Source: an uncultured Poribacteria bacterium (lineage in GTDB: Bacteria > Poribacteria > WGA-4E > WGA-3G). Taken from it: 64,000 nt of DNA. Positions 122 to 266 of the stretch are shown here, in pieces. Under the pieces are notes generated by a model. It searched no databases. It was given only the letters and a program-made list of their open reading frames with translations, and was not told the DNA's origin. A program made the position numbers and the translations under genes. Within the stretch, counting starts at the first letter, position 1. Each line of letters begins with the position of its first letter. The stretch covers positions 3,488,001-3,552,000 of the forward strand of contig OX638351.1 in the NCBI GenBank assembly GCA_951813565.1, given 5' to 3'.

Positions 122-233
122 TAAAAAAATCCGCCTCGCGTGGATTACGTCGGAGGTGCTTATTAGATGCACCGACAGTGTACCAACCACTGCCGATGCA
201 AAGCACTGCCAGAATAAGCCTGACAGCGCTGGT
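122..233 (-). ncRNA. candidate structured small RNA: two hairpins, a pseudoknot and a terminator-like end
   Basis: Minus strand: 11 bp stem 230-220/212-202 with loop GCUUAUU; 13 bp stem 200-188/180-168; AAUAAGC (164-158) is complementary to loop 1; imperfect hairpin plus U-run at 146-123. The G-U pairs in the two main stems form only on the minus strand. Confidence 0.55.
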
Positions 234-237
234 GTCT

Positions 238-266
238 ATTTTAACAGAGACCTTCTGAAGTGTCAA
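238..266 (-). promoter_or_regulatory. strong sigma70 promoter driving the antisense RNA
   Basis: Minus strand TTGACA (266-261), 17 bp spacer, TAAAAT (243-238) with TGn extended -10. Confidence 0.65.

Follow-up and report, generated by a model that had tools for sequence, protein, structure and literature searches.

A predicted cis-antisense RNA with hypervariable loops faces a structured leader in a multicopy chromosomal cassette of Poribacteria

What is transcribed from the minus strand at positions 122-266 of the window, the 64,000-nucleotide stretch of Poribacteria DNA analysed here, and what would it act on? A sequence-only reading had proposed an undescribed structured RNA of ~110 nt, driven by a near-consensus promoter and closed by a pseudoknot. 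We find that the element belongs to a multicopy cassette of ~400 bp, in one copy of which it makes up the antisense half, and its pairing patterns make it very probable that it encodes a cis-antisense RNA whose partner is a structured leader (Table 1). The minus-strand promoter with its TG extension is present as described, and it is kept in most copies: a site with at least 9/12 consensus is found in 73 of 79, and the TG extension in 69 of 79.

Table 1. Features of the cassette copy and its surroundings, in window positions
Feature	Position	Strand	Remarks
Facing sense promoter	80-108	+	9/12; -10 TATAAT intact, -35 degenerate in this copy
S1, 5' hairpin of predicted sense leader	117-151	+	outer pairs 117-121 with 147-151
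Antisense RNA, predicted	120-233	-	start inferred at 233 or 230; 3' end ~120-130
Switch strand	152-161	+	pairs with 286-291 (helix X) or 202-207 (helix U)
Heptamer complementary to loop 1 (claimed pseudoknot)	158-164	-	feature of this copy only
Hairpin 2	169-199	-	199-188 with 180-169; loop GUUGGUA (187-181), hypervariable across copies
Hairpin 1	202-230	-	230-220 with 212-202; loop GCUUAUU (219-213), hypervariable across copies
GACAG sensor strand	222-226	+	within the antisense footprint; pairs with 419-423 (helix T)
Helix Y	228-284	+	228-239 with 273-284; encloses the antisense promoter; 3' strand outside the antisense RNA
Antisense promoter	238-266	-	TTGACA-17-TAAAAT with TG extension; consensus 11/12
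Helix B:b	290-417	+	290-301 with 406-417; 97% paired, two-sided changes
Genome-wide hairpin repeat inserted in the B:b loop	322-404	.	foreign to the cassette
Toggle strand b'	413-423	+	pairs upstream (B:b and T) or downstream (helix W)
Local hairpin over the ORF1 Shine-Dalgarno site	435-455	+	seen in folds; 69% paired in a fixed register
ORF1, 83 aa	462-713	+	hydrophobic N-terminus, Cys-rich tail; stop abuts the ORF2 start
Helix W downstream partner	466-477	+	ORF1 codons 2-5; 96% paired
ORF2, 258 aa	714-1490	+	N-terminal membrane helix
ORF3, 527 aa	1480-3063	+	signal-peptide-like start, helical N-half, Cys/His-rich C-half

BLAST revealed seven close copies of the cassette in its own genome. 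A covariance model built from 77 copies returned 12 matches there, 10 of them full length, and the R1 score for the predicted antisense RNA is 118.5 bits. The same model matched 89 of 99 other genomes of the same Poribacteria family, with 1 to 18 copies per genome (lower bounds, with 22 candidates scored per genome), and none of 51 genomes from eight other families of the phylum. For the analyses below we aligned 79 distinct copies, taken from the own genome and 69 fetched loci, after dropping five partial tandem duplicates; because the copies are related, all counts overstate their independence. In five loci of a single genome, G017 (L022, L048, L056, L057 and L077), the sense promoter and 5' hairpin are partially duplicated in tandem ahead of the cassette.

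Both stems and their four G-U pairs lie where the earlier reading had placed them, and the two hairpins share a near-invariant core. The segment 122-233 folds at -47.1 kcal/mol on the minus strand (z -4.6) and at -36.8 kcal/mol on the plus strand (z -3.4); for 150-233 alone the z-scores are -5.1 and -1.7, respectively. In 78 of the 79 copies, the two-hairpin part is stabler on the minus strand. Across the alignment, 93% of cells are paired in hairpin 1 and 99% in hairpin 2, with changes on both sides in 6/11 and 6/12 pairs. As a measure of strand bias, we counted the pairs that read as G-U on one strand but A-C on its complement: the ratio of minus-strand to plus-strand G-U pairs is 101:14 for hairpin 1 and 148:3 for hairpin 2. 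Together with the compensatory changes, this bias substantiates the proposal that selection acts on a minus-strand RNA structure.

The homologues are less kind to the 7 bp pseudoknot, which had been proposed between loop 1 and a downstream AAUAAGC. The heptamer at 164-158 is an exact complement of loop 1 in this copy, but only four of the 79 copies carry it, loop 1 is mismatched in the other three, and in the other six close own-genome copies the heptamer differs. The longest complementary run between loop 1 and the linker averages 2.75 nt for cognate and 2.80 nt for permuted combinations (p=0.76, n=79), and loop 2 shows no cognate pairing with the linker (p=0.87). The pseudoknot columns are paired in 13-71% of cells, versus 93% and 99% for the hairpins, a comparison that is the weaker of the two tests since variable loops align poorly. 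Thus, while compensatory changes are found in both hairpins, the loop pairing has neither conservation nor covariation behind it, and its cognate pairing does not rise above the permuted level. The conserved, covarying pseudoknot that defines the RNA kinds built on one (pistol ribozyme, fluoride riboswitch, type III antitoxins) is likewise not seen. A free-standing pseudoknotted RNA of this sort, be it ribozyme, riboswitch or type III antitoxin, could draw on the strong promoter and on the exact 7-nt complement of this copy. It is nevertheless exceedingly improbable: the pseudoknot is missing from the family and largely refuted by the permuted-pair test, the loops, where a catalytic or ligand core would lie, vary more than any other part, and no minus-strand gene follows within the cassette.

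The claim of novelty held up better. Rfam 15 gave zero matches at the gathering score across the whole window and 20 homologous loci, and searches by E-value returned only sub-threshold chance rows, none of them near threshold on the element. A 'Poribacteria-1' RNA motif is reportedly part of a 224-motif paper; three Rfam accessions that we tried for it belong to other families. What survives of the ~110-nt structured RNA is therefore a predicted, promoter-bounded minus-strand structure that is absent from Rfam, but not a lone pseudoknotted molecule. Our search of the full-text literature found nothing on antisense RNA, RNA motifs or RNase III in Poribacteria, most subscription papers being outside its scope.

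The imperfect hairpin and U-run at the 3' end, read earlier as a terminator, point to the other strand. They are missing from the terminator scan list, their minus-strand fold has a z-score of only -0.4, and a strict terminator rule is satisfied in 2 of 79 copies, this one failing; in 77 of 79 the plus strand is the stabler. A terminator function is hence doubtful, and the structure is the 5' hairpin S1 of the predicted sense leader, read on the opposite strand. Upstream of S1 lies a facing sense promoter that reaches at least 9/12 in 69 of 79 copies and at least 11/12 in 56 (shuffled sequences, 4%). In four own paralogs it scores 11-12/12, and close paralogs carry a perfect TTGACA. The two promoters co-occur in 67 of 79 copies, with the facing sites 130 bp apart. 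These sigma-70-type sites bound an overlap of ~115 nt, in which the predicted RNAs are fully complementary. The term 'antisense' was thus right by virtue of facts that the earlier reading had missed, namely a conserved facing promoter and a structured leader that runs through the element. A short reading frame starting from GGAGG/AUG inside the overlap was considered and rejected: its 71 starts open frames whose lengths scatter from 3 to 72 codons, so there is no conserved peptide in the overlap.

The plus strand has a set of helices of its own. S1 shows plus-to-minus G-U ratios of 34:3 and 80:23, and all five outer pairs have changes on both sides. The corresponding ratios are 81:6 for helix X (152-157 with 286-291), 97:8 for helix Y, which is 95% paired, 106:36 for helix B:b and 58:39 for helix W (413-423 with 466-477). 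At the X pair 154-289, 77 copies present AU (52), GC (15), GU (9) or AC (1). Helix T is Watson-Crick in 373 of 385 cells, being nearly invariant with a single coupled event; helix U shows no two-sided change, and the register of the Shine-Dalgarno hairpin at 435-455 varies among subgroups. We rejected an alternative hairpin Z (274-278 with 288-292) for the switch: where position 289 changes to C, the X partner follows in 15 of 16 cases and the Z partner in 5 of 16. Without guidance, RNAalifold recovered S1, Y, T and B:b from 45 insertion-free leaders read on the plus strand. Helices X, Y, B:b and W cannot be by-products of the antisense fold, because each has its 3' strand upstream of the antisense promoter. 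Strand-specific pairing shows that the plus strand is kept as a predicted ~300-nt leader containing S1, X, Y, B:b, T and W.

These patterns also bear on the idea that the inverted repeats act as DNA, as mobile-unit ends or protein-binding boxes. The cassette is multicopy and scattered, one copy sits on a phage contig, the genome is full of mobile DNA hairpins, and the two hairpins have a near-invariant core in common. However, G-U pairs sort by strand and by helix, both promoters are conserved, the long-range plus-strand helices extend into the start region, and the seven close own copies have neither a transposase nor an integrase as a regular neighbour. We consider a role as DNA highly improbable.

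If the two strands meet as RNAs, the hairpin loops are where they would touch first, and it is there that the copies differ most. The 79 copies contain 71 distinct versions of loop 1 and 70 of loop 2, with lengths of 3-17 nt. Among the seven close own copies, the arms differ at none of 966 compared sites and the loops at 37% and 59%. In 44 close pairs, which are not independent and were selected for no more than 7% difference outside the loops, the difference is 47% in the loops and 20% at the four-fold sites of ORF1. Of 144 pairs within a genome, 141 differ in both loops. Among the seven own copies, no loop duplex is stronger than the cognate one, and cross-pairing occurs between twins and one near-twin. 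Such fast change could reflect selection against cross-talk or simply hairpin-loop mutation. Since one DNA supplies antisense and target from its two strands, they stay matched through any loop change, and by analogy with known loop-coded systems, the loop letters likely let each copy switch off only its own downstream genes. The U-turn motif of recognition loops, YUNR, is found in loop 2 of 38 of 69 antisense strands (28.8 expected) and of 33 of 69 sense strands (24.6 expected; p ~0.015, uncorrected), with no excess in loop 1.

How could binding in the overlap reach the first gene? Helices T and B:b share the 11-nt toggle strand (413-423) with helix W and are thus mutually exclusive with it; upstream, the toggle strand pairs with B (290-295) and with GACAG at 222-226. 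In 55 main-type copies, W reaches -13.2 kcal/mol, against -7.2 kcal/mol for shuffled sequences, and 40 of the 55 beat all 30 shuffles. W persists where the ORF1 start codon is lost, and different subfamilies keep it with altered letters; its partner in the sister genus is the Shine-Dalgarno site plus AUG of an N6/N4 DNA methylase gene. The best W duplexes are formed within the own subfamily, at -13.3 in the main group and -13.1 in the sister-genus group; in the small AC subgroup, W is not subfamily-specific. In loci L021 and L053, hairpin 1, GACAG and the toggle are altered together, and in L021 so is the W partner.

We lean towards a full repression model, built on folding predictions, in which loop-specific antisense RNA frees the toggle strand, which then masks the start region of the first gene. 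Its starting point is what the sequence shows: two facing sigma-70-type sites flank the ~115-nt overlap, the minus strand is kept as the two hairpins and the plus strand as the leader, and T plus B:b exclude W. In the absence of antisense RNA, the growing leader is predicted to display the target hairpins first (X and Y) and then to lock the toggle upstream (B:b and T) before the start codon emerges, leaving a window for the ribosome. Bound antisense RNA would cover GACAG and block T, so that the 3' end of the toggle stays open and may capture the start region through W. By analogy, binding would begin with loop-loop contact, such that each copy answers only itself. Repression is favoured because it gives all supported helices a role, with X presenting the target, T masking the toehold and W shutting the start, whereas activation leaves T idle.

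Folding of the nascent leader up to the start codon, done for 65 copies after omitting 14 divergent or broken ones, is in line with repression. In the free leader, B:b forms in 63 of 65 copies, and T forms with at least 3 bp in 39. Covering the antisense footprint opens the 3' end of the toggle, the toehold, in 47 copies and closes it in 4; the barrier to W falls in 40 and rises in 13, a change that is partly by construction, as masking a helix lowers the refolding barrier. Of 21 sister loci fetched later, six are without a W partner, and in all 15 others the barrier to W is lower. With a control mask that leaves GACAG uncovered, the toehold opens in 2 of these 15, and the barrier still falls in 8.

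Equilibrium folding gives a less uniform picture and provides the main argument for the opposite sign of control, in which the leader is off by default, with X holding B and W formed, and antisense RNA turns the operon on. When the fold ends just past the W partner, W is the default with 8.3 of 11 bp and drops to 6.2 bp upon antisense binding, and access to the start region increases slightly in 37 of 65 copies and decreases in 6. With 25 more bases in the fold, antisense binding raises the opening cost in 40 of 75 copies and lowers it in 11, by a mean of only 0.8 kcal/mol; in both states, opening the start region costs ~12-13 kcal/mol. The predicted direction of control depends on the folding model, and the equilibrium runs disagree with each other. 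Activation would also fit the well-supported helix X, and RNAalifold additionally pairs 156-161, inside the footprint, with the Shine-Dalgarno region. Single-sequence folds seldom contain that helix (0.1 bp), however, and it is disrupted in this copy. In the sister genus, T and a U-run would terminate transcription under the same reading, and a U-run directly follows T in 15 of 16 sister-genus-type leaders. It does so in none of the 55 main-type leaders, so termination may apply in the sister genus only; a terminator-like site is present in 7 of 75 leaders, and at least four of these are the same inserted repeat. Moreover, activation leaves T without a role, T would give an on state that is independent of antisense RNA, and B:b has already formed in nearly all free leaders before the start codon is made. 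We regard activation as rather unlikely.

A third option is that the facing promoters interfere by collision, or that duplex formation is followed by Rho-dependent termination or decay, the helices merely tuning stability. The conserved spacing of the two promoters and the presence of a gene for Rho are compatible with this, and convergent transcription matters in the plasmid pIP501, according to the passages of PMC4981023 used here. Interference alone, however, requires neither minus-strand hairpins nor fast-changing loops, and it does not account for W being kept against changing start regions; we find this option quite unlikely. Returning to repression by refolding, the inventory of host factors is relevant to its output. 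A search for the RNase III family PF14622 gave no match in any of 75 genomes of the order, the own genome among them, nor in two genomes of a further family. It was found in all four genomes of three more distant families, in a search whose controls were detected in 8 of 14 cases. PF00636 was not found in the own genome either. Lineage-wide loss of RNase III would be unusual. Since the enzyme is apparently missing, refolding rather than duplex cleavage is the likely output. In the own genome, Hfq has a match only below the cut-off, and the FinO/ProQ family was not found.

No public run on record as RNA contains this stretch. In two runs of one sample, which we only guess to be RNA, contigs of related copies cover 129-293 and 139-337 and pass the antisense promoter, as the sense leader would. 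These contigs carry no strand information and may derive from DNA. The two runs have no cover over ORF1-3, a lack that we do not count as evidence.

The leader precedes an operon whose proteins match no Pfam family and have no atlas hit at 0.9 or above. The ORF1 product looks exported, judging from its sequence. In 34 of the 63 copies with a start codon, the ORF2 start lies between -10 and +20 relative to the ORF1 stop, a count in which the ORF2 finder missed some cases. ORF2 has 157 homologs, of which the named ones are all Poribacteria hypothetical proteins, and its model (pLDDT 85) gave no significant fold match, one search having used the first helix only. Residues ~67-74 of ORF2 form a His-rich HxDHFH motif without a Pfam hit, which we take to resemble a histidine-triad zinc site. 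ORF3 is polymorphic between copies; its low-confidence model yielded no significant fold match, and a pore-forming role is conjectural. Other copies head beta-propeller proteins, DNA methylases or other genes, and the cassette is therefore portable. Divergent copies at 1.68, 1.99, 4.56 and 4.86 Mb of the own genome (L091-L094) precede signal-peptide and PD40 beta-propeller proteins, and both copies in L094 are truncated, with no 5' hairpin. Loci L195-L210 of the sister genus represent a cassette subfamily that mostly heads N6/N4 DNA methylase genes, with the U-run directly after helix T.

These cargo genes argue against an addiction module of the type I toxin-antitoxin kind, in which ORF1 or the operon would be toxic and the RNA the antitoxin. 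Its layout, multicopy with two loops and a sequestered start, matches that of IsoA/AapA in the described part of that system (PMC5416894), and ORF1 begins with a hydrophobic stretch. Type I toxins are membrane peptides of ~20-60 aa, however, whereas ORF1, with 83 aa here, is exported-looking and measures 65-111 aa in 47 copies. Of the 63 copies in which it has a start codon, 14 have a short ORF1; 16 of 79 copies are without a start codon, and elsewhere methylase, beta-propeller or other genes take its place. We judge an addiction module very unlikely.

Among known systems, several features of cis-antisense control in general (facing promoter sites, minus-strand hairpins and a structured sense target) are recognizable here at the sequence level. 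By analogy, the cassette would work most like IsoA/AapA of Helicobacter pylori. The passages of PMC5416894 used here describe six paralogs, each a cis-antisense RNA that has two stem-loops and is complementary to the 5' leader; kissing is loop-specific, alternative folds of the target mRNA hide the start region, and RNase III clears the duplexes. Likenesses are the several chromosomal paralogs, the two-hairpin antisense RNA directed at a 5' leader, and the loop-coded specificity and alternative leader folds over the start region predicted here. Unlike AapA, a 30-aa toxin, the cassette heads exported-protein operons, a methylase and others; its switch is predicted to be a toggle 180 nt beyond the footprint, whereas AapA uses 3'-end processing; RNase III was not found in its order, which takes away one step of the IsoA pathway, and it has no Rfam or sequence match.

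A second relative is the antisense-driven attenuator. pT181 belongs to this class, as does pIP501. In the latter, promoters face each other and the nascent leader of RNAII is refolded upon binding of RNAIII, as described in the part of PMC4981023 consulted. The cassette resembles it in its facing promoters, an antisense RNA of ~110-140 nt and a binding event predicted to reroute downstream folding; two loop pairs are a further likeness, taken from the title of a reference cited in that source. In contrast to both plasmids, the cassette resides on chromosomes in many copies whose loops differ within one cell, it has no rep gene or origin, and no intrinsic terminator was seen in its main-type leader. 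No replication initiator was found as a target, the cassette genes being exported proteins, methylases and others, and there is no plasmid match. We assign the cassette to neither IsoA/AapA nor pIP501: it has no small toxin as regular cargo and no rep gene, RNase III was not found in its order, and a general terminator was not seen.

FinP/traJ, CopA/CopT and ColE1 RNAI/RNAII are systems in which loop-coded allele specificity evolves freely, antisense and target being one DNA; each is single-copy per plasmid and controls transfer or replication. The cassette is predicted to share this loop specificity within one DNA, but its genome has no FinO/ProQ match and no copy matches the plasmid collection. 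In the phage c4 system, one strand encodes both the RNA and its separate target sites, and the two variable loops of the RNA act as immunity-like barcodes. A resemblance to c4/a1b1 leaders had been suggested earlier, and the two variable loops and one cassette-bearing phage contig do recall it. Yet the cassette's target is the exact opposite strand, second target sites within 4 kb are not enriched (10 of 20 loci, against 9.3 expected from non-cognate loops), and neither c4 antisense RNA nor c4-a1b1, both Rfam families according to the passages of PMC2864571 used here, is matched. We thus set the resemblance aside.

Several copies are rearranged or displaced. The phage contig (L126:9840-12026) carries a whole cassette with ORF2 and ORF3 homologs beside terminase and portal genes, and its hairpin 2 is duplicated, each duplicate with a loop of its own. 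Phage and plasmid reference collections gave no match to the cassette; two viral pattern scans returned 52 and 18 stretches, with the element on one contig, and a metagenome scan with a loose pattern gave one real case among 80 fetched loci, among the matches listed. Half cassettes also occur: L066:4770-4950 keeps the hairpins without the usual leader and operon, and L074:4780-4990 has the sense promoter and target hairpins before a TonB-dependent receptor, with loops identical to those of L064 in the same genome. In L004:1690-2600 (the G000:C1:3449368 copy), a transposase-bearing insertion sequence, presumably IS630-like, lies between sense promoter and leader. This copy has both loops in common with the G000:C1:4797871 copy, so that action in trans could take place. 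The copy in the window may itself be decaying, given its weakened sense -35 element and the inserted repeat. That repeat has dozens of 96-99% copies elsewhere, is missing in paralogs L003 and L006, and creates a terminator-like site at 392-417 of the plus strand; positions 1-15 of the window are another copy of such abundant hairpin repeats.

If the repression model holds, the cassette represents an undescribed antisense RNA family in which plasmid-style loop barcodes operate on a chromosome in many parallel copies, and barcode logic would work in a lineage in which the search for the usual duplex-cleaving enzyme gave no match. It would also offer a handle on the control of polymorphic exported proteins in an uncultured sponge symbiont. 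The copies form a natural library, with ~75 loop pairs that share a conserved scaffold and sigma-70-type promoters, and specificity, direction and orthogonality are therefore testable in E. coli reporters. A bolder extension, which we rate as rather unlikely, is that at least ten orthogonal, RNase III-independent switches address polymorphic exported-protein operons and that shared barcodes act across loci. If it were true, a promoter-disrupted copy would silence its twin, a half cassette would subject a TonB receptor to the RNA of another locus, and host RNAs would meet a phage-borne cassette with a third hairpin and new loops. The cassettes would then constitute a network, coded in RNA, that provides allele exclusion or immunity for surface and secreted proteins.
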